From a virus, in the IMG/VR virus record IMGVR_UViG_3300045988_098422: a stretch of DNA of 64,000 bases. One strand, written 5' to 3'. A program made the position numbers and the translations under genes. Below the pieces are notes generated by a model. It worked only from the letters and a program-made list of their open reading frames with translations, was not told the origin of the DNA and searched no databases. Shown here in pieces: positions 12,529 to 63,483 of this stretch. Each line of letters begins with the position of its first letter. The first letter of the stretch is position 1.

Positions 12529-12559
12529 TTTGGAATGTCATTTTAAGTTGCTACATTTG
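12529..12559 (+). promoter_or_regulatory. Bacteroidota-type promoter (-33 TTTG / -7 TAcaTTTG)
   Basis: TTTG 12529-12532, 19-nt spacer, TACATTTG 12552-12559. Confidence 0.6.
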
Positions 12560-12579
12560 TGCAGTTAATTAACAACATC

Positions 12580-13665
12580 ATGGAAAATTTAACAGATATC
12601 TTTTTAAAATCCAGAGGGCACAAATATTTACGCAAAGTGCCGAACGGTAAAGGCGGTTATCGTTACATATACGAAGAACCGAGCCTGAAAACTACTTCGG
12701 TAGTCACACGTGAACAAAAGTACAAACAGAACGGGTGGGATTACAATACCCCATCAACGGTTGAGTACGCAAACGACCCACAGCGTAAACGGCTGCATCG
12801 TAAAACAGTTGCCGAGTACATTAAACGTTCAAGCCGACAGGGTGAAACGCCTCGTGCGGTGTTTACATTAGGCGGTTCGGGTGCGGGTAAAAGTACCGTT
12901 CTTAGAATGTTAGGTGAGCAAGACCCGTCCTTTAACAAAATTGTTACTGTTGATAGTGACGATATTAAGACAAAAACGTTTAAGGAAGATTTTGACGCTT
13001 ACAACAAACAAAAGAAGATGAGTGCCGCAGGGCGTTTGCATGAAGAGAGTAGCGAATTGGCTGATAAAATTGTTGACGGTATATTAAGCGTAAATAATGA
13101 CTACTTAAAGGATGGTACGATGAAAACGTATGCTTCTGCCGCAGCGGAAATTGAAAAAGCTAAGAAGAAAGGCTACCGGACTGATGTAGTAGGTGTGACA
13201 ATTTCGGTGGAAGAAGCCATTCGTCGGGCATATTCTAGAGCAGCTAAATCTGGTCGTCACGTTGAACCTGAAGTAATTGTAAAGGCTCATGTCGGTTCTA
13301 CGGAAACATTTTTGAAGTTAATTGAAACAGGTTTGGCAGATAGTTTGAAATTGTATGATAATTCGAGTAGTTCGCCAATACTAATCTATGATAGTGAGGA
13401 TGAAAATCCTATTAAGAACGTTAAGTTATTTGAGGAATTTAAAAATAAGAGGAATTACACTATGGCAAAGAAAGACAACAACATTGAAAAATCTTATGAT
13501 TTTGGTAAAAGTGAGTTTAACCGAAAAATGAAAAAGATATACCAAGAGCGAGAGGCTAAAGGTCTTCCAAATAGTGTGGATATACCAAACGACGCAGATG
13601 CGGACGACTTGGCACGCTTAAGAGCTTTTGGGGAATGGTTGAGCGATGGGCAACCCGTAGATTAA
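12580..13665 (+). CDS. zeta-toxin-like P-loop kinase domain protein
   Basis: Walker A LGGSGAGKSTV then VDSDDIK and HEESSEL. The N-terminus carries HKYLRKVPNGKGGYRYIYEEP. Start moved to ATG 12580 because the tracked GTG 12559 lies inside the -7 box. Confidence 0.55.
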   Translation: MENLTDIFLKSRGHKYLRKVPNGKGGYRYIYEEPSLKTTSVVTREQKYKQNGWDYNTPSTVEYANDPQRKRLHRKTVAEYIKRSSRQGETPRAVFTLGGSGAGKSTVLRMLGEQDPSFNKIVTVDSDDIKTKTFKEDFDAYNKQKKMSAAGRLHEESSELADKIVDGILSVNNDYLKDGTMKTYASAAAEIEKAKKKGYRTDVVGVTISVEEAIRRAYSRAAKSGRHVEPEVIVKAHVGSTETFLKLIETGLADSLKLYDNSSSSPILIYDSEDENPIKNVKLFEEFKNKRNYTMAKKDNNIEKSYDFGKSEFNRKMKKIYQEREAKGLPNSVDIPNDADADDLARLRAFGEWLSDGQPVD

Positions 13666-23568: not shown

Positions 23569-25179
23569 ATGAACGTACAGATTTTATTTAATGATGACGC
23601 CCGAAAGAAAATGTTTGAGGGGGTTGAAGAGTTGGCAAATGCAGTGTCGTCCACGCTCGGACCAAAAGGGCACTCGGTTATCCTGGATAAAGGCTATGGA
23701 ATACCCCACATCACCAAAGACGGTGTGACAGTTGCCCGTGCCTACGATACGGATGATACGATGAAGCGTATGGGTGCGACGCTTGTGAAGACCGTTGCTG
23801 CAAAAACATGTGATGAGGCGGGGGATGGCACTACGACAGCCACCATTTTAACCCGTGCATTAATGAAAGAGGGGATGGCAACATTAGCCCGTGTGTCTAA
23901 TCCACAGCGTTTTAAAGAGGGTATTGAAGCCGCTAAATGCGAAGCCGTGAAGTTTATGCAACAGATGAGCAAAGAAATTGGTGAAAACGATTTTGAGCGT
24001 ATCAGACAGATTGCGACAATAAGTGCCAACGGTGATGAGGAAATTGGGGCTATTATCACTGAAGCTATTGGCAAAGTAGGCAACGACGGAGTAATTACTG
24101 TTGAAGAAAGTAGCAAGAGCGAAACCACCGTAGAGGTGACGACAGGCTTCCAATGGGAAAAGGGGCTGTTGAACCCGTATTTTGTGACTGACCCCGAACG
24201 AATAGAATGTGTACTGAACAAACCATACATTTTGCTCTTTGGGCAAAACATAAACTACCCCGATGAAATATTGGGTGTATGTCGCAAGGTGTACGATAGT
24301 CACCGTTCTCTTTTGGTTGTTGCTCCTAATGCGTCTAACGACGTAGTGAATTTCTTGGTGCAGAATGTTAAACAAGCCAATGGACTGAAAGCCTGTTTCG
24401 TTAAAGCTCCGGGATATGGGCAGATGCAAAAGGATTTGATTATGGATTTGGGCGTTAAGATTGGCGCACACGTAATCGGAGAAGAGTATGGCAATCGTGT
24501 AGAAGAAATTGGCGTGGATTGGCTTGGTGAGTGTGAGCGTGTTGTGGTAAATAGCACTCGTACTATACTCACAGGGGGCGCAGGTTCGCCAGATGAGGTA
24601 AATACACAGGTAGCCGCAATTAAGCACCAATTAGACGACAGTACGAACGCTTTTGACATTGAAAAGTACCGTGAACGTATTGCACGCCTGACAGGTGGTG
24701 CGGCTGTTATTTATGTAGGCGCAGACAGTGACGTAGAAATGAAGGAACGGAAAGACCGTGTTGATGATGCTATTGCCGCAACTCGTGCAGCATTGGAAGA
24801 GGGGTACGTTCCGGGAGGCGGCACAATTCAGCTTCGTGCCTCTGAACTGCTTGTGCACCAACTTGCAGACTTGAATGAAAAACCAGCCGATTTCAGAGCT
24901 GGATGGTGTGTAGTGGCTGAGGCTTTGCGTTACCCGTTCCGTCAATTATGCGAAAATGCTAGTGCGAACGCAGTACGTATTCAAGTGGATATGGAACTTC
25001 AACCGTGGATGCACGGTTATGACCCTATAAAGGAAGAAGTTTGTGATATGTATGATGCAGGAATTATTGACCCGACAAAGGTGGCACGCTTGACGCTTGA
25101 GAACGCTACGTCGGTTGCAATTCAATTCCTCAATACTTCATGTGCAATGGCAGCTAGTAATGATGAGAAAGGGAGTTAA
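23569..25179 (+). CDS. groEL: GroEL-type chaperonin
   Basis: 536 aa; LGPKGHSVIL, ITKDGVTVA, AGDGTTTATIL, KAPGYG, GGGTIQL. Confidence 0.95.
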   Translation: MNVQILFNDDARKKMFEGVEELANAVSSTLGPKGHSVILDKGYGIPHITKDGVTVARAYDTDDTMKRMGATLVKTVAAKTCDEAGDGTTTATILTRALMKEGMATLARVSNPQRFKEGIEAAKCEAVKFMQQMSKEIGENDFERIRQIATISANGDEEIGAIITEAIGKVGNDGVITVEESSKSETTVEVTTGFQWEKGLLNPYFVTDPERIECVLNKPYILLFGQNINYPDEILGVCRKVYDSHRSLLVVAPNASNDVVNFLVQNVKQANGLKACFVKAPGYGQMQKDLIMDLGVKIGAHVIGEEYGNRVEEIGVDWLGECERVVVNSTRTILTGGAGSPDEVNTQVAAIKHQLDDSTNAFDIEKYRERIARLTGGAAVIYVGADSDVEMKERKDRVDDAIAATRAALEEGYVPGGGTIQLRASELLVHQLADLNEKPADFRAGWCVVAEALRYPFRQLCENASANAVRIQVDMELQPWMHGYDPIKEEVCDMYDAGIIDPTKVARLTLENATSVAIQFLNTSCAMAASNDEKGS

Positions 25180-27328: not shown

Positions 27329-27946
27329 ATGAAGAAAGATTTCCTTAATGTTTCTCCTGATACAGGGGGGGGTAGCGGAACGGTAACTGTCACCGCTGAC
27401 CCTAATTTAAACTTTGCTAGTCGTACGACAACTTTGAATTTTAATGCTGATGGAGAAGTATTAAAAGAGGTTGAAGCGTTACAGTTTGGGAATACCATTA
27501 TTCCGCAATTTTATTTAAGTCCAACCGTTTCAAGTAACAATGACTTATGGGCGTTGAAAATTACAACAACCTTAGAACTAGAAGAATTTGCGGCTGGAGC
27601 TTATAATTTCTTGGTGGATTGTACCGCTAATAAGAAGATAGCTACGGAAGGGACAGCTCCTAATGTAACTATTTGTATTTCGGTGATTAATAGTGTTATC
27701 ATACCGAGTGGTGGAAGTAACATAAATAACCGAGAATACGATATGTATTACAGTAAAGACAACGGTACTAAGACTAAGATGACAGTAAGTAAAGACCAAT
27801 ACAGTCAGTTTATTTCTTTCCGTTTTATGGAGAGGGCTACATTTGAAGAACTAACTGTTTCTAATTATCGCTTTTGGCTTCGCAATATAAACGATGCAAG
27901 TGAAATAGAACTTCCAGTTAGGTTTAGATTAGCTTATCATTATTAA
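27329..27946 (+). CDS. poly-G paralog family member A (G8, in frame, ON); BACON/Ig-like N-module (inference)
   Basis: MKKDFLNVSPDTGGGSGTVTVTADPNLNFASRTTTLNFNADGEVLKEVEALQ shared with 4 paralogs; 205 aa. Confidence 0.75.
   Translation: MKKDFLNVSPDTGGGSGTVTVTADPNLNFASRTTTLNFNADGEVLKEVEALQFGNTIIPQFYLSPTVSSNNDLWALKITTTLELEEFAAGAYNFLVDCTANKKIATEGTAPNVTICISVINSVIIPSGGSNINNREYDMYYSKDNGTKTKMTVSKDQYSQFISFRFMERATFEELTVSNYRFWLRNINDASEIELPVRFRLAYHY
27365..27372 (+). repeat. G8 homopolymer encoding Gly-Gly-Gly
   Basis: ACA GGG GGG GGT counted directly. Confidence 0.95.
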
Positions 27947-27978: not shown

Positions 27979-28458
27979 TTACCGCATTTCGTTATAACTA
28001 CGGTTCATCCACGCTTCTTTTTCCATGCTTTCAATCATGTCCTCAAGGAAATTTAAGGTTCCTTGGTCAGCGGGTGGCACTTGGTCATGAATTTCACGGA
28101 TGCGTCTAATTACCGTGTCCCAGTCGGCAGAAATAATTTTCCACATTTCCATGTCCGTCGGGAGTGGCTGAGACATTTCAAACTCCTGAATGTGGTTTGC
28201 CTGTAACATAGCTTCCATACTACCGAGCGGTCTGCCACCTAAAGCCCGCACACGTTCAGCAACGTCATCAACACGTTCAATTTCGGCTTCATAAAGTTTC
28301 AGCATAGCTTCGTGATAGCTGCCAAAAGAAGAACCAATAACGTTCCAATGGAACTGCCATGTTTTTAGCAACAGGGTAAAGTGGTCGGCTAATAAGCCGT
28401 TCAACAGGACAAGACTTTTAGCTATGTCCTCTGATGTTAATCCAATGTTTACTTTCAT
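27979..28458 (-). CDS. dps: Dps (DNA-binding ferritin-like protein)
   Basis: LLADHFTLLLKTWQFHWNVIGSSFGSYHEAMLKLYEAEIERVDDVAERVRALGG. Start set at MKVNIG (28458; alternative start 28467) because the tracked upstream Mets run into the promoter box. Confidence 0.85.
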   Translation of the reverse strand: MKVNIGLTSEDIAKSLVLLNGLLADHFTLLLKTWQFHWNVIGSSFGSYHEAMLKLYEAEIERVDDVAERVRALGGRPLGSMEAMLQANHIQEFEMSQPLPTDMEMWKIISADWDTVIRRIREIHDQVPPADQGTLNFLEDMIESMEKEAWMNRSYNEMR

Positions 28459-28493
28459 AATGTACATTTTAAAAAGTTGATGTATATACGCCA

Positions 28494-28501
28494 CAAAGGT
28501 A
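28494..28501 (-). promoter_or_regulatory. -7 box TACCTTTG for dps (minus strand)
   Basis: Minus-strand GACTACCTTTGT, same 12-mer as the + strand promoters at 13710 and 28570. Confidence 0.55.
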
Positions 28502-28549
28502 GTCAAAAGAAAATTATTAGAAAAATCTTAGAAAAAGTCCGGTGAAGTC

Positions 28550-46645: not shown

Positions 46646-47413
46646 ATGGAAAAGGAATTAAAAACACTGTTGCGCAAGTTGGCAGCCGAATATGAAACAA
46701 AAGATTTCATAAACGATGACCCCGTGCGCTTTGCTCATGCCTATGCTGACAAACAGGATATGGAAATCGTAGGGTTCATCGCTTCTTGGTTGGCGTATGG
46801 CAATCGCAAGGTTATTGTTACCACTATACAGGCACTTATCAACGAAATGAATTACCTGTCATCAGGTAGCCCGTTTGTCTTTATAGTGGAACGCAGGTGG
46901 GAACAGATGGAGCACCTAAAAGATGCCACCCTGTACCGCTTCTACAAATGGAGTGATTTCTACGACTTGTGCGAACGCCTGTATGACATTTACCAGAACT
47001 TCACCACTATGGAACAGGCAGTTTGCAAACAGTACGATGAAATTAAGAACCCTGATTGGGTGCAATCAGTTCTAAACCTGTTTCCAGGAGTTAAGGGCGT
47101 GCCAAAAGATACGAAGAGTGCCTGCAAGCGGGTTTGCATGTTCATGCGTTGGATGGTGCGGTGGGGCAGCGATGTTGACCTCGGTATATGGTCTTTCGTT
47201 CCTACTAGCAAACTAATCGTACCACTGGACACTCACGTCGCTCGTATGGCTCGTCAATTGGGTCTTATTGCCGTAAAAGGCAATAACATGAGAGCAGCGT
47301 ACCAATTAACACAGCAATGTCGTCTAGCGTTCCCAAACGACCCCGCAAAAGCTGACTTCGCATTATTCGGATATGGTATAACACATAAAGACAAGAAAAA
47401 TGAATTGTACTAA
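46646..47413 (+). CDS. TIGR02757/DUF2400-family protein
   Basis: FINDDPVRFAHAYADKQDMEIVGFIASWLAYGNRKVIV matches my recollection of the family N-terminal signature (DPI..h.f....D.E..gf.a...a.G.R..I); 255 aa. Confidence 0.6.
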   Translation: MEKELKTLLRKLAAEYETKDFINDDPVRFAHAYADKQDMEIVGFIASWLAYGNRKVIVTTIQALINEMNYLSSGSPFVFIVERRWEQMEHLKDATLYRFYKWSDFYDLCERLYDIYQNFTTMEQAVCKQYDEIKNPDWVQSVLNLFPGVKGVPKDTKSACKRVCMFMRWMVRWGSDVDLGIWSFVPTSKLIVPLDTHVARMARQLGLIAVKGNNMRAAYQLTQQCRLAFPNDPAKADFALFGYGITHKDKKNELY

Positions 47414-49039: not shown

Positions 49040-49661
49040 ATGAAGAAAGATTTTATTACAGTTCTTCCCGAATCGGGGGGGGGGTGACGCACAGGTTCAA
49101 GTAACCGCTGACGTCAATCCAAGTTTCGCAAGTCGTGAAACTACTATCAATTTTAACGCCAACGGGCAAGTTCTTAAAAGTATTCGGGCTGTTCAGGACG
49201 GTATGCCGTTTGTTTGTCAATTAGGTTTTGATGCACCTGCTAATTTAAGTCAAGGGTTCTTTATTCAATATTTTGGGCTTACTCGTACAGGTGGAACTAA
49301 TGGCTGTCCGCTAATAAATGGAATTATAGCCAGAATTATAAAGTTAGACAACGACTTTAAATTAATTCCTATGTTTGGTTGTTTGCGTTCATTTTGGAAA
49401 GAAACCGATGATAAAGAATTAATTGCCGAGCTTAGATGGACGGACAATACAGGGTATGAAGTTGGGAAAACGTACCTAAATTTTACTTTTGACAACGAAG
49501 ACGGTGAGGAGTGGGCTAATTATACCGCTGAATTTAGCGGGTCGGATTTAGTTGTGCCGAGTGATGCTTACAGATTAAGAGTGAGTGTTGGCTTTGGACG
49601 TGGTGATGTTGGTATCGAAGATAATAATTACATTTGGCAGTATTATTTATCTTTCCAATAA
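49040..49661 (+). CDS. poly-G paralog family member B (G10, frame-shifted OFF as written)
   Basis: ATG 49040 gives MKKDFITVLPESGGG then TGA. With G9 it reads SGGGDAQVQVTADVNPSFASRETTINFNANGQVLKSIRAVQDGMPFVCQ..., in frame with tracked ORF 49203..49661. Confidence 0.7.
49075..49084 (+). repeat. G10 homopolymer
   Basis: aatcGGGGGG GGGGtgac counted directly. Confidence 0.95.
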
Positions 49662-49671
49662 AATCAGATTT

Positions 49672-49691
49672 TCCCGGAAGAAATTCCGGGA
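49672..49691 (+). terminator. terminator hairpin of cassette
   Basis: TCCCGGAA-GAAA-TTCCGGGA then TTTTCTTTG. Confidence 0.7.
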
Positions 49692-49696
49692 TTTTC

Positions 49697-49727
49697 TTTG
49701 ATATGTCAATTAGTCTGCCTACATTTG
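49697..49727 (+). promoter_or_regulatory. Bacteroidota-type promoter in conserved cassette
   Basis: TTTG 49697-700, 19-nt spacer, TACATTTG 49720-27, leader CAGTGTCAATCAATAG. Confidence 0.7.
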
Positions 49728-49768
49728 CAGTGTCAATCAATAGTTATTCACTTTAAAACTCAAATGTT

Positions 49769-53708: not shown

Positions 53709-54596
53709 ATGTACAAAGACTTTGTAAATGTAACCCCTGAAAGCGGTGGCGCAGGCACTACTCCGATAGCTGTTGCCGCTGATGAAAACGAAGGAGCTGC
53801 ACGCAGCACTTCACTCAATATTGCGGGTGGCGGTGTGACACGAACTGTCTCTATCACTCAAAAGAAAATGCTTGTGGAAAACCAAATTGAAGTTAAATAT
53901 TGGTTAGACGCAGCAACTAGCGGGACAGGCAAGTCAATTTATTTGGAAGCCTATGCAAACAATGATGTAGCAAGCAACCTGAAAATTAACTTTAGCATTG
54001 ACCAACAGGGACCGACAGGCGAATGGGAAACCAACACTCCAGTAGAAATACTGATAAATACTGGAGATAACGCTTCCACAACTTATGAAATTCCATATTA
54101 TGATTACGGATGGCGTTTTCATGAAGAAGTGGCTACTATTACCCCTTCTCAAGATGAAGATTTTATTTATGATTTTGCAGGATTCATTGAAGAATTTAGG
54201 GCTCCAGAAATTGGTATCTGGAAAATAAACACGCTTACAGGAGAACCAAATGGAGGAGAAGCAACAAACCCATCAGCCGTTTATCAAGTTTCTTCAAACG
54301 CTGACTTCAAAAAAGTTTTGACTTTTGCTTCTTTGGGTGGAGTTACTTTTTATGATGAAAGCGGTTTAGCAAGTATGACACTTACTTGGTTACAAATCCA
54401 ATATTCAGATGAAATTGGGCAAAAGCCATACGCTATTTCTGTTCGGGGTGGCTTTACAGGAGTATCAGAATTAAACACTATGCTTTGGAGTGGTAAATTC
54501 CAAAATGGAGTTATTAATGCAACTTATCAAGCCCAATTTAAAATAGATGGCGTTATTCGCAATTTTAAATGGCGAATTCAAGGAGCACACATTTAA
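53709..54596 (+). CDS. poly-G paralog family member E (no tract; GG encoded GGT GGC; constitutively in frame)
   Basis: MYKDFVNVTPESGGAGTTPIAVAADENEGAARSTSLNIAGGG; 295 aa, longer divergent C-domain. Confidence 0.75.
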   Translation: MYKDFVNVTPESGGAGTTPIAVAADENEGAARSTSLNIAGGGVTRTVSITQKKMLVENQIEVKYWLDAATSGTGKSIYLEAYANNDVASNLKINFSIDQQGPTGEWETNTPVEILINTGDNASTTYEIPYYDYGWRFHEEVATITPSQDEDFIYDFAGFIEEFRAPEIGIWKINTLTGEPNGGEATNPSAVYQVSSNADFKKVLTFASLGGVTFYDESGLASMTLTWLQIQYSDEIGQKPYAISVRGGFTGVSELNTMLWSGKFQNGVINATYQAQFKIDGVIRNFKWRIQGAHI

Positions 54597-54608: not shown

Positions 54609-54626
54609 GGGGAACTCCGGTTCCCC
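54609..54626 (+). terminator. terminator hairpin
   Basis: GGGGAAC-TCCG-GTTCCCC. Confidence 0.6.
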
Positions 54627-54652: not shown

Positions 54653-55304
54653 ATGAAGAAAGATTTTGTAACAATTACCCCAGATACGGGGGGGGGGCTC
54701 GGCTACTCCACAAGTAACCGCTGAACCCAATGTGACGGCACAGTCACGCTCAACAACTCTCAATTTTGATGCCAACGGAAAGCAGCTTAAATCCGTTCAA
54801 GTCAATCAACTCGGTATTCCATGGTTCATAAATGTGTGTACCGCCATTCAGGGCGAAATAACTGAAGCCAATACAAACGTCGGACATTCTTTAAAAGAAG
54901 TGGATTTTTCGCCTAGTGGCGATGGTGGTAGTATGCCAAATATTCCATTCTTTCAGTATGATTTTGAAATAAATAATTTCAATTACACCAGTAAGACGGT
55001 TTGGTATTTAGCTCTGGAAGCTAATATATTAGGTACTTTGATTGATACCAATACGGAATATTTAATTCTGGAATTTGATTTAGGCAAAGGAGATGGGTGG
55101 GAACGAATGGAATTTATGTGGGAAAATACCTTTGAGGGCTATCAATATTGGCGCAATACGACACCCAACGTTTACCCCAATGAATATCCGACAGTTAAAA
55201 CTGTCCAAATGCGAGTTGGAATTGGTGATAATACTGACCCAGAGCCTATTCATACTTATCTTGCTCAATTTACAGTAAATATCGTATTAAGCCCCCGACC
55301 CTAG
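54653..55304 (+). CDS. poly-G paralog family member C (G10, frame-shifted OFF as written)
   Basis: ATG 54653 gives MKKDFVTITPDTGGGLGYSTSNR then stop. With G9 it reads TGGGSATPQVTAEPNVTAQSRSTTLNFDANGKQLK, in frame with tracked ORF 54732..55304. Confidence 0.7.
54688..54697 (+). repeat. G10 homopolymer
   Basis: atacGGG GGGGGGGctc counted directly. Confidence 0.95.
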
Positions 55305-55339
55305 CGTAGCCAACATGATTTGATTACGCATTTGGATAA

Positions 55340-55357
55340 GCCGGAAAATTTTCCGGC
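55340..55357 (+). terminator. terminator hairpin of cassette
   Basis: GCCGGAAAATTTTCCGGC (identical to 30605) then TTTTTCTTTG. Confidence 0.75.
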
Positions 55358-55363
55358 TTTTTC

Positions 55364-55394
55364 TTTGCCAATCCAATTTATCTGCCTATCTTTG
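55364..55394 (+). promoter_or_regulatory. Bacteroidota-type promoter in conserved cassette
   Basis: TTTG 55364-67, 19-nt spacer, TATCTTTG 55387-94, leader GGGTGTCAAATTAAAA. Confidence 0.7.
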
Positions 55395-56920: not shown

Positions 56921-56932
56921 AACGTATAATCA

Positions 56933-56953
56933 ATGACACGGCTACCGTGTCAT
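56933..56953 (+). other. perfect 9-bp hairpin just upstream of paralog D
   Basis: ATGACACGG-CTA-CCGTGTCAT. Confidence 0.5.
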
Positions 56954-56971
56954 AACTTAAATATTTTAGAT

Positions 56972-57594
56972 ATGAAGAAAGATTTTATTACTGTAACCCC
57001 TGAATCGGGGGGGGGGCAGGCACAACAGTAAACGTTGTTGCTGACCCTAATTTTGGCTCTATGCCTAGAAAAACAACCTTAAATTTTGCGGCAAATGGGC
57101 AACCGCTTAACAAAGGAATAGAAGTTTCTCAAATAGGAAGTTTCTTTCAATTATTTGCTTTTCCCAACTTTACTTTAGCAACAACCTCACCCAATCAACA
57201 GTACATGTTGAAAATGTTTTTGGATAGTTTGGACTATGATGAGGTTGAATTTCAAGGACAAACTTTTAATGTTCCTTATTATGGGGTACAAACTACCAAA
57301 GCCACGGGAGTAACTCTGTATGATGCCTTCTTAGACTTCCATTTATTATTTTCCACAGAAGCAATTAATAGCTTACAAATCACTGAATTTGTGGCTGATG
57401 TTGAATCAAATAATGGAGGGGTAAGCACTGTGTCTTTAACGCCCGCCCAAGTAGAAACAAATTTGGGTGTGTCAGAATTTACACTAAGCACTAAATCACT
57501 TAGTGGATTACAAACTTTGCATCAGGTCACTTTTTATGCCATTATAAACAATGCGAAAGTGCAAATTTGCAGAGTAGGAAATGCCGTTAGATAA
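56972..57594 (+). CDS. poly-G paralog family member D (G10, frame-shifted OFF as written)
   Basis: ATG 56972 gives MKKDFITVTPESGGGQAQQ then stop. With G11 (or G8) it reads SGG(G)AGTTVNVVADPNFGSMPRKTTLNFAANGQPLNK, in frame with tracked ORF 57061..57594. Confidence 0.7.
57007..57016 (+). repeat. G10 homopolymer
   Basis: aatcGGGG GGGGGGcagg counted directly. Confidence 0.95.
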
Positions 57595-57621
57595 TCTGAT
57601 TTGATAATTCTACGCATAAAA

Positions 57622-57648
57622 GAAGCCCGTTTCACAACGGGCTTTCTT
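57622..57648. terminator. bidirectional terminator between convergent + and - genes
   Basis: GAAGCCCGT-TTCACA-ACGGGCTTTC. Confidence 0.6.
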
Positions 57649-57710
57649 CGTCATAATCCATGATTATGGAAATAAAAGGAATTATTCTAAGAGATATTGT
57701 GTATCAGTAC

Positions 57711-57887
57711 CTAAAAGTATAATGGAGTAATCAATTTTTCTGCCACTTCATCATCATACCAACCACCACGCTTGCACCATTCAACCGGAACTTTTGGGTC
57801 TTCAAGAGGCAGACCTAAATCTTTTGCAACAGCTTCAAGTTCTGCCTTACATCCTTCAACTGTTGGTTTTCTATCAAATTGTTTCAT
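57711..57887 (-). CDS. small hypothetical protein (58 aa, below ORF-track cutoff), third gene of minus-strand cassette
   Basis: Hand-translated MKQFDRKPTVEGCKAELEAVAKDLGLPLEDPKVPVEWCKRGGWYDDEVAEKLITPLYF; ATGA overlap with the stop of the upstream minus-strand gene. Confidence 0.5.
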   Translation of the reverse strand: MKQFDRKPTVEGCKAELEAVAKDLGLPLEDPKVPVEWCKRGGWYDDEVAEKLITPLYF

Positions 57888-58456
57888 GATTTAAGAAGTT
57901 CTTTATATTCATCAATAGGGAAATACATACGCCCAAACTTTTCAGCCCACTTTTCAGGATAAATAGTAACGTACTTGTCATGGTCATGAATAGTGGCACA
58001 GGCGATGATACTTGGTAGCCCAATAATTAGCAAGTAGAACCACCCTGACCAACGGGAATTAATGTGATGCCCGTATTCGTGGCTAGCCGTATCCAATCTG
58101 TTGTAAGCCACCTCACTAATGAGGATAAAGTGACCGAGTGTGACGCTACTCGTACCGCCCTTTTTAAAGTAAAAAGCACCCCCACAGTACCCAATGTACC
58201 GCCAACGTGTGAAAATGGCTAATAGAAGCCCTAAGAGGCTTTGTGGCAGCATCCAAACAATGAGCAACAGGTGCACCAACACACAAGTGAGTTTCCCTTT
58301 CGGGTTGAACAGTGGAAAATCATCCTTTGTGACATCCACGCAAAAATTTTCATTCTGGGCGGTTTTGAAATCTTCGTGACCGCTTGCAGTCTTAGTTTGT
58401 AGTTTTTCTTTCATAAGCCAATAATTTTCGGCAAATTTACAAATTATTTTTCTCAA
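57884..58456 (-). CDS. membrane protein with HExxH zincin motif
   Basis: TM LTCVLVHLLLIVWMLPQSLLGLLLAIF, SHEYGHHINS, TM WFYLLIIGLPSIIACATI; alternative start 58414. Confidence 0.55.
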   Translation of the reverse strand: MRKIICKFAENYWLMKEKLQTKTASGHEDFKTAQNENFCVDVTKDDFPLFNPKGKLTCVLVHLLLIVWMLPQSLLGLLLAIFTRWRYIGYCGGAFYFKKGGTSSVTLGHFILISEVAYNRLDTASHEYGHHINSRWSGWFYLLIIGLPSIIACATIHDHDKYVTIYPEKWAEKFGRMYFPIDEYKELLKS

Positions 58457-59949: not shown

Positions 59950-61047
59950 ATGGAAAAGAAAATTTCTTTGGCTACATTTGAACAAGTAGCCGCAGATAAT
60001 GGTTATGAAGTGTTTACCGCTGAAGAGGTAGCCGCATATTACAAAGATGGCTTGCAGAAAAGCATGAAGAATGAATTAACTTCTGATGAAAAGGAGTTGT
60101 TTGCGGCTGACATTGCTTTCTTACAAAAAGCCGTTTGTGTTGATGAGAATGGTAAAGAGGTGACACGTTATTTCCGTCCGGAACAGGTTAACTGGGAAAA
60201 GACAGAAGATGGCGTGTTGTTGAAAGGTATTGCCGGAGTTTTTGCTGATACTCCTACTAACAGAAAATTGAATCGTGTTGGAGAGGCTTTTGTGCCTTCA
60301 CCGGATTTTATGAAGTCCTTGGAAAGCGAGGAAATTAACGAAGACATTATTAAAGCCATGAGAACAGGGCGTTACGCTGATACTCCTGAAAATCGTCGCT
60401 TACACCGTGTCGGTCAGCCCTATGCAAAGCGTGAGGGTAAAGGTACAGAAGAAACCGACAAAGAAAAGAAGCGTATTGGTGACACAAAAGCCGAAATTGA
60501 GAAGCTGGATGCCAAGTATGGTAAAGTATATACCGCTCTTGGAAAACGCAAACAAGAGGCTTTAGAGAGGGGCGATAAGGCAGAGGCAAAACGTATGTCG
60601 GAAGCCATTACCAGAATGGAAAATGAACACGATGCCGAAGTAGCTAAACTTAAAGAAAAAGAGGGTGGTGAAAAAGGTGACGAAAAACTACACGTAAAAG
60701 CCGACGAACGTAAAGGTGGCGAAAAGGGTGATAAAAAGCTACATGAGGAAGCTGAAAAGAAAAAGAAAGAGCCCAATCCGGGTTCCAAGAAAAATCCTTT
60801 GAAGATAGACAGCATTAAGGATATTCACAAAGATGCAGCCTATCAGAAAATTACCATTGACGGTCACGAAGCTACTATTGTGAACCGTGGCACATACGAC
60901 GAAGATACTCACAAGCCGATATATTATGTTGAAGCAGGCAGTCAGACGCACGCATATACAGGCTTGGACATGCTGAAAGAAAAGATTGAGGAATTTGTGC
61001 GTGTTGCCAATGGTGGAAAGGCAGACAGTGACGATAAAAAAAAGTGA
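59950..61047 (+). CDS. hypothetical Lys/Glu-rich protein with two ADTPxNRxLxRVG motifs (scaffold/internal-protein-like)
   Basis: FADTPTNRKLNRVGEAF and YADTPENRRLHRVGQPY; tandem KGGEKGD-KLH repeat; ends in GAT AAA AAA AAG TGA. Confidence 0.6.
   Translation: MEKKISLATFEQVAADNGYEVFTAEEVAAYYKDGLQKSMKNELTSDEKELFAADIAFLQKAVCVDENGKEVTRYFRPEQVNWEKTEDGVLLKGIAGVFADTPTNRKLNRVGEAFVPSPDFMKSLESEEINEDIIKAMRTGRYADTPENRRLHRVGQPYAKREGKGTEETDKEKKRIGDTKAEIEKLDAKYGKVYTALGKRKQEALERGDKAEAKRMSEAITRMENEHDAEVAKLKEKEGGEKGDEKLHVKADERKGGEKGDKKLHEEAEKKKKEPNPGSKKNPLKIDSIKDIHKDAAYQKITIDGHEATIVNRGTYDEDTHKPIYYVEAGSQTHAYTGLDMLKEKIEEFVRVANGGKADSDDKKK
61036..61043 (+). repeat. A8 homopolymer / A AAA AAG heptamer at gene end
   Basis: gatAAAAAAAAgtga counted directly. 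Confidence 0.95.
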
Positions 61048-61321
61048 AGTAACACCCTCTGACGCATCCAAATCTTTCTTTGAAAGCAAATTTAAGAATT
61101 TGAAATGGAAGGATGGAGGTGATAAAGATTACCCAAGTGTTGTCGCTCACAAGAAATTTAGAGGCGTGCCTATTGATATAGAAATTGATGAAGATGGGCA
61201 GGGAGAAATTATTATTGGTGATGCCGACGAAGGAATTGAGTTTGGGGCACTTACATCTGAAAAAGCCGCAAAGGAACTTTGGGATACTATTTTAGAGGAA
61301 CTTGAATATTACGAGGACTAA
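61043..61321 (+). CDS. 92-codon ORF in the +1 frame with no start codon of its own after the A8 tract: candidate recoded C-terminal extension
   Basis: SEVTPSDASKSFFESKFKNLKWKDGG...ILEELEYYED contains no Met. The only ATGs of tracked ORF 60986..61321 lie 38-62 nt inside the upstream gene and give a non-protein-like peptide. Confidence 0.45.
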   Translation, partial: SEVTPSDASKSFFESKFKNLKWKDGGDKDYPSVVAHKKFRGVPIDIEIDEDGQGEIIIGDADEGIEFGALTSEKAAKELWDTILEELEYYED

Positions 61322-61656: not shown

Positions 61657-63483
61657 ATGGACGATATAGAAAAATCACGCCACGGTCGGTATGAAGACAA
61701 CGCTAAGAACAGGCGGCTTCATCGTGTAGGTCAAGAATATGGCAGTAAGAAGCAGGAAGACGAAACTGTTGACCCTAGCAAATTAACTCTTGACCAATTA
61801 CATAAGGAAATCAATGAGTTGGGGCACATATTAGGCGGTAGGATTAAGGATGGTAGACGTACAGAAGATGTAGAAAAGCGTATTTCTGATTTGCTTAAAT
61901 ATGCTCCCGATAAGGTATTGGAAAGCACCTTAGAAGCTCTTAGGACAAATGTCAAGCCAAACCCGACCGCAAAAATTGCCGCCAAACTGACGGAAATGGA
62001 AATTAACCGTCGCAAAACAGAGGGTTCTGCAAAACAGACTGAAAAGAAAGAGGAAACTCCTAAGGAAGAGCCAAAAGCTCAATCTGAAGAGCCTGAAACA
62101 TATACCCGTGTGAAGTTTGATGATGTGCCTCAAAGCGGAAAGGTAAATCTTAAGAAATACCTTTCTAATAAAATTAGGGCGGAGGTTGACAAGGCTTGGA
62201 AAGACAAGGCTAAAATCGGTGACAAAACTTTGCAGGACATGGAAAAGGGTATGGTCGCAGAGTTTAACAAAAACTTTGACAATCTAAGCAAGTCAAAACG
62301 AGCCGAAGCCCTGTACAGTATTATGACGGTTAAGGCAGAAATAGCCCGTCGGGGTAGAGGGGCTAAAAACGAGGAAAAACAAGGTGAGCAGCTTGCATCT
62401 AAACAGGAAACTCCAACGGAAAAGCCTAAAGTAGACTATAAGAAACCTGAATCCTTTAATGAGCTTTACACCAGAGTTCGAAACACATGGTCGGATATTA
62501 TGGAAACAAAGCCCAAGGAAGTAGATTTTACTAAGCCTAAAGAAGTGGCTGAAATGGCTTCTGCATTTTTTCCTGGAACAACTATATCTAAAGTAGACGG
62601 TGAAGAAGAATATATGGTTCAATATCCTGGGGATGCAAGTAGGTTTATGCGTATTGATAAATATACGAGTTCTCCTAAAGCCTTGAATGATAAAATAAGG
62701 ATGTTTTTATCTATGGATATGGACATGCGCACTAGACAGAATTTTTCAAATGATGAAAAAGAAAAATTTGATAGGATATTTGCGCTAGTTGCGGAAAGTG
62801 TGGCTGATAGGGCACTTGTTAAAGATATGAACGTTGCCCGCACAAAAGCATTTGAAGAACAGGTTGATGAAAACAATAGGAATATTTCAAGGAATGTTAG
62901 GGTAAGAAAGGGTAAACCGATGAGCTTTGAGGAAGCTAATCAAGGTCGTGGAAATCCTAAATATCGTTCTGATGAACTTTTTCGTATAAACTGTCAAACA
63001 TGTGTGGTAATTCATGAATTGCGATTAAGAGGATTTGATTTGGGTGCGAAGCCAAAAACAAGTTCTGCACAATTTGCAATGGCAAAAGATTCCTCCTATG
63101 CTTGGATAGACCCGTTGACAGGGCAGCAACCCGAAGCTGTGAGAATAACTTGTGCCCCAGAGAATAAAGTAATTAAGGTCAGAAAAAGCCAGAAATCAAA
63201 GTCGGATTTACGTAAAAATATTTTAGAAGCTACAAAAGAGGTAGGACGTTATAATTTTTCTTATGGATGGGAAAACGGTAAGGATAGTTCTGGACATATC
63301 ATAACCGCTGAAAGGCACGCTGATGGGAATTTGACATTTTACGACCCTCAAAATGGGAAGAGCGTGCCTATGGTAGAATTATTGGATGAGGTTAGTCCTA
63401 AATATTTGTGCAGGATAATTCGAGTAGATAATTTGCTTATTAAACCGGATATTGTTAAAGATTACGCAATGCAATATGAGTAA
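61657..63483 (+). CDS. large multidomain protein; N-terminal NRRLHRVG motif, C-terminal predicted papain-fold Cys-His-Asp domain
   Basis: GRYEDNAKNRRLHRVGQEYG at the N-terminus; C-terminus RINCQTCVVIHELRLRG ... SSGHIITAERHADGNLTFYDPQNG. Confidence 0.55.
   Translation: MDDIEKSRHGRYEDNAKNRRLHRVGQEYGSKKQEDETVDPSKLTLDQLHKEINELGHILGGRIKDGRRTEDVEKRISDLLKYAPDKVLESTLEALRTNVKPNPTAKIAAKLTEMEINRRKTEGSAKQTEKKEETPKEEPKAQSEEPETYTRVKFDDVPQSGKVNLKKYLSNKIRAEVDKAWKDKAKIGDKTLQDMEKGMVAEFNKNFDNLSKSKRAEALYSIMTVKAEIARRGRGAKNEEKQGEQLASKQETPTEKPKVDYKKPESFNELYTRVRNTWSDIMETKPKEVDFTKPKEVAEMASAFFPGTTISKVDGEEEYMVQYPGDASRFMRIDKYTSSPKALNDKIRMFLSMDMDMRTRQNFSNDEKEKFDRIFALVAESVADRALVKDMNVARTKAFEEQVDENNRNISRNVRVRKGKPMSFEEANQGRGNPKYRSDELFRINCQTCVVIHELRLRGFDLGAKPKTSSAQFAMAKDSSYAWIDPLTGQQPEAVRITCAPENKVIKVRKSQKSKSDLRKNILEATKEVGRYNFSYGWENGKDSSGHIITAERHADGNLTFYDPQNGKSVPMVELLDEVSPKYLCRIIRVDNLLIKPDIVKDYAMQYE

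Follow-up and report, generated by a model that had tools for sequence, protein, structure and literature searches.

Paralog C, a gene at positions 54653..55304 (+ strand) of an uncultivated phage, is very likely a slipped-strand contingency (phase-variable) locus, in which the length of a poly-G tract turns translation on or off. The window, that is, the whole stretch of DNA that was analyzed, comprises 64,000 nucleotides of IMG/VR record IMGVR_UViG_3300045988_098422. Three of the features by which a contingency locus is recognized were found at paralog C: a homopolymer in the 5' part of the coding region, length polymorphism of this homopolymer among near-identical genomes, and toggling of an ORF whose remainder is intact. 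The same switch would be present in at least three further paralogs of this genome.

A G10 tract divides the reading frame of paralog C

In this assembly, the gene is split by its tract. The ATG start codon (54653-54655) leads into the sequence ...CCA GAT ACG GGG GGG GGG CTC..., in which a run of ten G on the coding strand (54688-54697, +) spans the Gly13-15 codons of a BACON module. This run is the variable element of the gene and qualifies as a homopolymer of at least 7 bases near the 5' end of a coding region (codons 12-15). Read with G10, the 5' fragment (54653..54724, +) consists of 23 codons, translates as MKKDFVTITPDTGGGLGYSTSNR, and closes at TGA 54722-54724. The preliminary description had placed the truncation at this point, and its coordinates, the tract, and the stop codon were all confirmed. 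The downstream frame (54732..55304, +), which is the +1 frame, comprises 190 codons counted from a GTG and encodes the rest of the BACON module together with an orphan all-beta C-terminal domain.

With a tract of G9, G6, or G12, the gene would be a single ORF of approximately 216 aa. With G9 in place of G10, the 216-aa fusion product begins with MKKDFVTITPDTGGGSATPQVTAEPNVTAQSRSTTLNFDANGKQLKSVQVNQ, the peptide spanning the tract in the full-length protein is DFVTITPDTGGGSATPQVTAEPNVTAQSR, and GTG 54732 becomes the codon for Val27. The claim that G9 restores a real protein was borne out by the protein database, which contains 216-aa orthologues that are 95-96% identical to the repaired product and carry the Pfam BACON domain. 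The GTG, for its part, was rightly described as an internal valine codon: the BACON match of the repaired protein (residues 4-52) crosses both the tract and the GTG, and the first 26 residues include many positions that are nearly invariant in the family. For this particular assembly, the count of 10 rather than 9 G may be a one-base miscount.

Protein clusters reflect both forms of the gene. The 216-aa protein is found in clusters with BACON (P0001 with 890 members and P0002 with 264 members). Gene callers split or truncate the genes that carry tracts, and the 190-aa ORF starting at GTG, an artefact, stands for the 901 database member sequences of cluster P0004, which has no precomputed Pfam match. 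Annotation and pan-genome counts are therefore systematically wrong at these loci.

The source phage

The phage from which the window derives is probably an uncultivated human gut phage with a genome of about 108 kb that infects Bacteroidota, with Bacteroidales as the likely host order. Human gut metagenomes contain near-identical contigs of 107-110 kb, and the GC content of the genome is 41%. Among the genes in the window are those for a DnaE-type polymerase, an SbcC-like nuclease, SF1/SF2 helicases, an NAD-dependent ligase, a ribonucleotide reductase, and GroEL (23569-25179). Among isolates, the best matches of the DnaE protein were to Bacteroidota phages, namely Tenacibaculum phage Larrie and Cellulophaga phiST (both about 39%) and, at 30-33%, Bacteroides phages. 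Further accessory genes encode a protein with a zeta-toxin-like kinase domain (12559-13665), a 608-aa protein with a C-terminal papain-fold glutamine-deamidase toxin domain (61657-63483), a ferritin/DPS-like protein (27979-28506, - strand; Pfam Ferritin, 76.7 bits), and a DUF2400 protein (46646-47413).

Bacteroides and Parabacteroides are the predicted hosts of the candidate family 'Gratiaviridae' (Benler et al. 2021; PMC8008677). Its members are marked by a phiST-related DnaE accompanied by SbcCD and SF1/SF2 helicases, by a ferritin-like (DPS/Mn-catalase) gene, by a contractile-tail structural module, and by where they fall in the TerL phylogeny. Both the DnaE/replication module and the ferritin-like gene are present in the window; terminase or structural genes were not identified in these 64 kb. 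In its DnaE, replication, and ferritin-like genes, the phage resembles 'Gratiaviridae'.

Related cassettes in the window and their flanks

The window contains five members of the family, four of which (paralogs A-D) carry a tract at the same codons, roughly 12-15. These four share the start MKKDF(I/V/L)x(V/I)xP(D/E)(T/S)GGG, and all four long G runs of the window are located there. Paralog A (27329..27946, +; 205 aa) has a G8 run at 27365-27372 and is in frame here. Paralog B (49040..49661, +; ATG at 49040) has a G10 run at 49075-49084 and is out of frame, as is paralog D (56972..57594, +; ATG at 56972), with its G10 run at 57007-57016. The slip direction of paralog C agrees, as had been stated, with that of paralog B, both needing -1 or +2 bases, while paralog D needs +1 or -2. 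Paralog E (53709..54596, +; 295 aa), located directly upstream of C, has the same N-terminal module but no homopolymer and is intact, its Gly-Gly being encoded by GGT GGC. As such homopolymer-free members show, the tract is not dictated by the amino acid sequence.

After repair, paralogs A-D encode proteins of 205-216 aa, and all four exceed the gathering threshold of Pfam BACON (PF13004; 25 bits), with scores of 32 (A), 25.4 (B), 27.4 (C), and 26.4 bits (D). These matches begin at residue 3-4 and therefore run across the tract. Among paralogs, the N-terminal modules (about 55 aa) share 40-61% identity; between the C-terminal parts (about 150 aa) of the paralogs, no similarity was detectable.

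Several observations concern the mobility of these genes. In eight related contigs (L001-L008), about 125 bp stand in place of the paralog D cassette (56921-57890, about 970 bp), and one further contig, L010, is without the body of paralog C (54775-55371). Judged from such contigs, family cassettes appear to be gained and lost as units. Signs of module exchange were also seen: an A-type gene (L009/L031, the paralog A orthologue) has exactly the 5' 35 nt of C, the chimeras P0007 and P0009 join an E-type N-terminus to a C-type C-terminus, and L018 combines a C-type N-terminus with a different body of 209 aa.

A GC-rich hairpin (54609..54626, +) lies 26 nt upstream of the paralog C ATG, and the leader between the two is AT-rich and without a Shine-Dalgarno sequence. 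Hairpins of this kind occur at the corresponding place in paralogs A and D, again upstream of an AT-rich leader. A hairpin is also present 3' of each of paralogs A-D; that of paralog C (55338..55359, +) is followed by a T run and resembles a terminator. In a promoter search, the motif shared by the AT-rich leaders occurred essentially nowhere but at the paralogs; it therefore belongs to the duplicated cassette and is uninformative on the timing of expression. Inspection by eye found motifs of the Bacteroidetes promoter type (TTTG, about 19 nt, TAnnTTTG) beyond the terminators of B (TACATTTG, about 49690-49740) and C (TATCTTTG, 55364-55394), and none at the paralogs themselves.

Tract length in orthologous loci

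Tract length was compared in 23 assemblies, namely the window and 22 orthologous loci with the same flanks taken from IMG/VR and metagenome assemblies. The paralog C tract was G6 in two, G7 in two, G8 in two, G9 in eight, G10 in seven, and G11 in one of them, and the remaining assembly carried the interrupted form GGGGGAGGG. The locus was in frame in 11 of the 23 assemblies and out of frame in 12, with G9 as the mode. The spread from G6 to G11 between matching flanks upheld the central proposal of the preliminary description, that the tract is a variable frameshift site. Closely related pairs differed in the tract: L002 and L015 are identical over 1075 flanking nt, yet have G9 and G10, respectively; L003 and L024, with 2 differing sites, have G6 and G9; and L006 and L008, with 5 differing sites, have G8 and G7. 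Tract length is thus uncoupled from relatedness, and the tract changes faster than its surroundings.

The rest of the gene appeared constrained. With the tract normalised, all 18 complete orthologues, including all 10 out-of-frame alleles, had an open frame of 216 codons, and orthologues of 215-216 aa were seen with either G6 or G9. The dN/dS ratio of paralog C was 0.38 overall and 0.34 among out-of-frame alleles, not above that of in-frame alleles, and variable sites were distributed over the three codon positions as 11/15/27.

The tracts of the other paralogs vary as well. Paralog A orthologues had G6, G7, G8, G9 (three cases), and G10 (two cases); the paralog B orthologue in L026 had G7, and the paralog D tract was G9 in L106 and L107. 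When the states of A and C were read on the same contigs, ON/OFF, ON/ON, OFF/ON, and OFF/OFF were all present, that is, the two assort independently.

The paralog C tract is more than chance would produce. The G runs of the window comprise one G8 and three G10, with none of 6, 7, or 9; homopolymers are generally depleted, C runs not exceeding 5 and T runs not exceeding 6. The 8-mer GGGGGGGG matched at 10 places in the window, compared with 0.80 +/- 0.99 in 100 shuffles that preserved dinucleotides, none of which (0/100) reached a count of 10. In 34 control ORFs, GGG made up 21% of the Gly codons, and GGG-GGG was used in 0 of 55 Gly-Gly dicodons.

The only A run of at least 7 in the window is an A8 at 61036-61043. 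It lies one codon before the stop of an ORF at 59950-61047 (365 aa, no match to any protein family), which is overlapped by an ORF at 60986-61321. Among relatives, this run was A7, A8 (three cases), A9, A10, or A11, and either A7 or A10 would fuse the 365-aa ORF to an extension of about 90 aa in the +1 frame. From its sequence, this run looks like a second hypervariable homopolymer, either a switch for a C-terminal extension or a site of transcriptional slippage.

Poly-G tracts in distant family members

A profile scan of the viral contigs in IMG/VR yielded 69 starts of family genes. G7 or a longer run was found at about nt 36 in 54 of the 69, and in many, another poly-G tract followed at about nt 115-127 (around codon 41), at an 'A-G-G-G' turn (...S/A-GGG...). 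Across the family, two separate Gly turns of the BACON module can therefore carry poly-G. Carriers of the second tract include L011/L074, L012, L055, L068, and L073; in L074 it is the only tract.

Reading frames could be assessed in 63 of the 69 genes, the other 6 loci being too short. Genes with a tract were in frame in 13 cases and out of frame in 37 (about 26% ON), compared with 12 in frame and 1 out among genes free of a tract. Nearly all broken genes gave an ORF of 170-250 aa when only the tract lengths were changed, by one base each. In-frame protein variants with 3 Gly and with 4 Gly both exist. Some tracts are broken by a single A or T (L022, L054, L051, L059, and L061), for example GGGGAGGGG and GGGGGGAGGGGG; such interruptions would be expected to stabilise tract length and may represent 'locked' alleles.

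In a scan of genome contigs, the sole match was L108 (CAJUGV010000015.1), a 35.7-kb contig with two tandem tract-free family genes (PDSGNLGTE and PDSGKGTDQ) that had been binned with a Paraprevotella MAG from mouse gut. This contig is probably phage and gives a weak hint at a Bacteroidales host.

Origin of the frame differences

We considered whether the variable tract might act on RNA instead of as a heritable switch. Stutter of RNA polymerase, or a ribosomal shift on the G run, could yield full-length protein from the 'out-of-frame' alleles, so that the tract would tune the amount of protein. Long homopolymers are known sites of RNA polymerase slippage, although mainly as A and T runs. Consistent with such recoding, tract-bearing genes are in frame in 13 of 50 cases, near the neutral value of 1/3, and their frames are nevertheless intact with dN/dS below 1, which is as expected if the DNA frame were nearly irrelevant. 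The required shift, however, is not constant: it is -1 nt for paralogs B and C but +1 nt for D, and it differs among orthologues (G7, G8, G10, and G11), leaving no conserved recoding configuration. Moreover, short G7 alleles are out of frame too, G GGG GGG does not count as a classical slippery site of the X XXY YYZ type, and the in-frame lengths 6 and 9 account for 11 of 23 alleles at the paralog C locus, where G9 is the commonest. We judge recoding at the RNA level to be unlikely, and polymerase stuttering would in any event add to the variation found in the DNA rather than replace it. In its programmed form, whether as ribosomal frameshift or as transcriptional slippage, the explanation fails, since neither the frame relation nor the length is conserved and B and C would need the opposite shift to D.

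An artefact of sequencing or assembly, in which every tract would in reality be in frame and simply have its length miscalled, was also weighed. Homopolymers are error-prone, amplification of viromes can add slippage, and several supporting contigs were below 3x; for those at very low coverage (1.4-2.5x), the G counts may be off by one. Nevertheless, well-covered contigs conflict as well (L015 at about 32x with G10, L019 at about 11x with G9, and L106 at about 12x with G10), so miscalling cannot explain the spread of lengths. That spread runs from 6 to 11 and does not stay within +/-1 of a single value, the frames of these genes are otherwise unbroken in the same genomes, and both the interrupted GGGGGAGGG allele and the in-frame variants with 3 and 4 Gly exist. 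An artefact is thus very improbable as the source of the polymorphism.

Decay of redundant paralogs, with frameshifts happening to fall in a fragile run, would fit the three broken genes among the four tract-bearing paralogs of the window, the coming and going of cassettes (D missing in 8 relatives, the body of C deleted in L010), and the ending of L022 at 58 aa, but it is extremely unlikely given that the 216-codon frame is open in all complete orthologues once the tract is set aside, that dN/dS is no higher in out-of-frame alleles, that full length is retained in orthologues down to 65% identity, and that the tract is conserved in distant family members, where decay would erode it.

Slipped-strand switching remains the preferred explanation, and it could operate as follows. 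Mispairing of slipped strands during replication of the phage genome would add or remove G's and thereby cause heritable one-base changes. With G6, G9, or G12, the frame would be kept and the BACON protein of about 216 aa made (ON); with G7, G8, G10, or G11, translation would end after about 20-23 codons (OFF). By this rule, the copy of paralog C in the window would be OFF, with paralog A ON and paralogs B and D OFF. Slippage of DNA as the cause, and the reversibility of the change within a population, are inferred from polymorphism at the population level. As the paralogs vary independently, one genome lineage could yield progeny with differing combinations of these proteins.

Extended to the whole family, the same reasoning leads to a picture that is possible but doubtful, in which gut Bacteroidota phages would carry several BACON-X cassettes, each made up of a conserved N-terminal module with one or two switches and an orphan C-terminal beta-sandwich that can be exchanged, giving a single genome 2^n 'phasotypes' of the virion or of infection. 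Were this true, the family would be a phage counterpart of Opa variation in Neisseria, matched against the phase-variable capsules of Bacteroidales.

Putative function of the encoded protein

The AlphaFold model of the paralog C protein was all-beta (pLDDT 78, pTM 0.71), with low confidence for residues 1-30; misfolding of the GTG product therefore cannot be argued from this model. When the model was compared with the PDB, it matched only generic Ig-like or CBM-like sandwiches (E above 1e-3), with no specific match, and in BFVD its matches were limited to uncharacterised 'BACON domain-containing' proteins of Myoviridae sp. ct3pM2. In a profile search of the PDB, the BACON modules of GH16 and GH5 enzymes were the only matches, and weak ones. 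The C-terminal domain proved to be an orphan: an exhaustive HMMER search of 1.84 billion representatives returned 5 matches, all of them to the same family or to low-complexity sequence, so that domain architecture offers no clue to function.

Other searches were similarly sparse. None of the paralogs, and none of ten genes in their neighbourhood, could be assigned to a PHROGs family. With paralogs C and A as queries, tblastn gave no match among 50,697 GenBank phage records, and megablast of the region from 46 to 60 kb gave a single match of 179 bp. No signal peptide was recognized by eye in the paralog C protein. The family genes are located among replication and accessory genes, outside any recognised structural module.

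BACON is a putative glycan-binding fold. The combination of a conserved N-terminal domain with unrelated, exchangeable C-terminal domains suggests, by analogy, the layout of phage receptor-binding or decoration proteins. As a tentative guess, which we hold to be rather less than even in likelihood, paralog C might encode a virion-associated protein that binds glycans or the host surface and serves bet-hedging against phase-variable Bacteroidales capsules.

Relation to known systems

Bacteroidales escape phages by phase-varying their capsules. To our knowledge, little is known of phage-side answers to this variation beyond diversity-generating retroelements and DNA inversions, and poly-G switching, if it works as proposed, would be a third route of diversification in gut phages. 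A widespread, poly-G-switched family in abundant uncultivated gut phages would accordingly be a concrete and testable candidate for bet-hedging on the side of the phage.

The opa genes of Neisseria are paralogs that each have a repeat in the 5' coding region, switch independently, and consist of a conserved 5' part and a variable remainder. The family described here resembles them in having 5' repeats in multiple paralogs, with combinatorial expression as the likely consequence. The opa repeat, however, is a pentanucleotide in the signal-peptide region of genes for bacterial outer-membrane proteins, whereas the tract reported here repeats a single nucleotide, in a phage gene that encodes no signal peptide.

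The closest phage system is that of Campylobacter Fletchervirus, for which hypermutable tracts of G7-11 in receptor-binding genes and the resulting subpopulations are reported (Sorensen et al. 2021, Cell Rep 35:109214; as summarised in PMC12633550 and PMC12823448). The two systems have in common runs of 7-11 G inside coding genes of the phage, several such runs per genome, and switching of the frame by tract length. They differ in the host, which is here Bacteroidota and not Campylobacter, and in the 41% GC of the present genome. The switched genes of Fletchervirus are reported to be for receptor binding, while those described here encode a paralogous family of BACON-module proteins of about 200 aa, for which such a role is a guess. 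In addition, the tract is here confined to one fixed homologous position (codons 13-15), some members having a second one at about codon 41.

Contingency loci have also been described in T2 and T4, where homopolymers undergo reversible frameshifts by polymerase slippage, with bet-hedging as the proposed benefit (Gomez, Barrick and Waters, bioRxiv 2025; PMC12633550). Runs of at least 6 bases are spread there over many functional classes (PMC12633550). In the present phage, by contrast, the long G runs all belong to a single gene family, and homopolymers are avoided in the rest of the genome. Poly-G tracts have been noted in BPP-1 and PB1-like phages as well (PMC12633550, PMC12823448).

BACON domains are familiar from crAssphage and other gut phages with Bacteroidales hosts, for which glycan binding has been proposed (de Jonge et al. 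2019; PMC6949934). In contrast to the N-terminal module described here, BACON domains of the crAssphage type form tandem arrays in large proteins, which differ in how many repeats they have, and that article makes no mention of frameshift, poly-G, or slippage (PMC6949934). In the literature searched, the coverage of which was incomplete, no account was found of poly-G switches in 'Gratiaviridae' or in the BACON genes of gut phages. Poly-G switches in phages are thus already known, and the BACON genes of gut phages appear to be a new setting for them, one that is well supported at the level of sequence and population.
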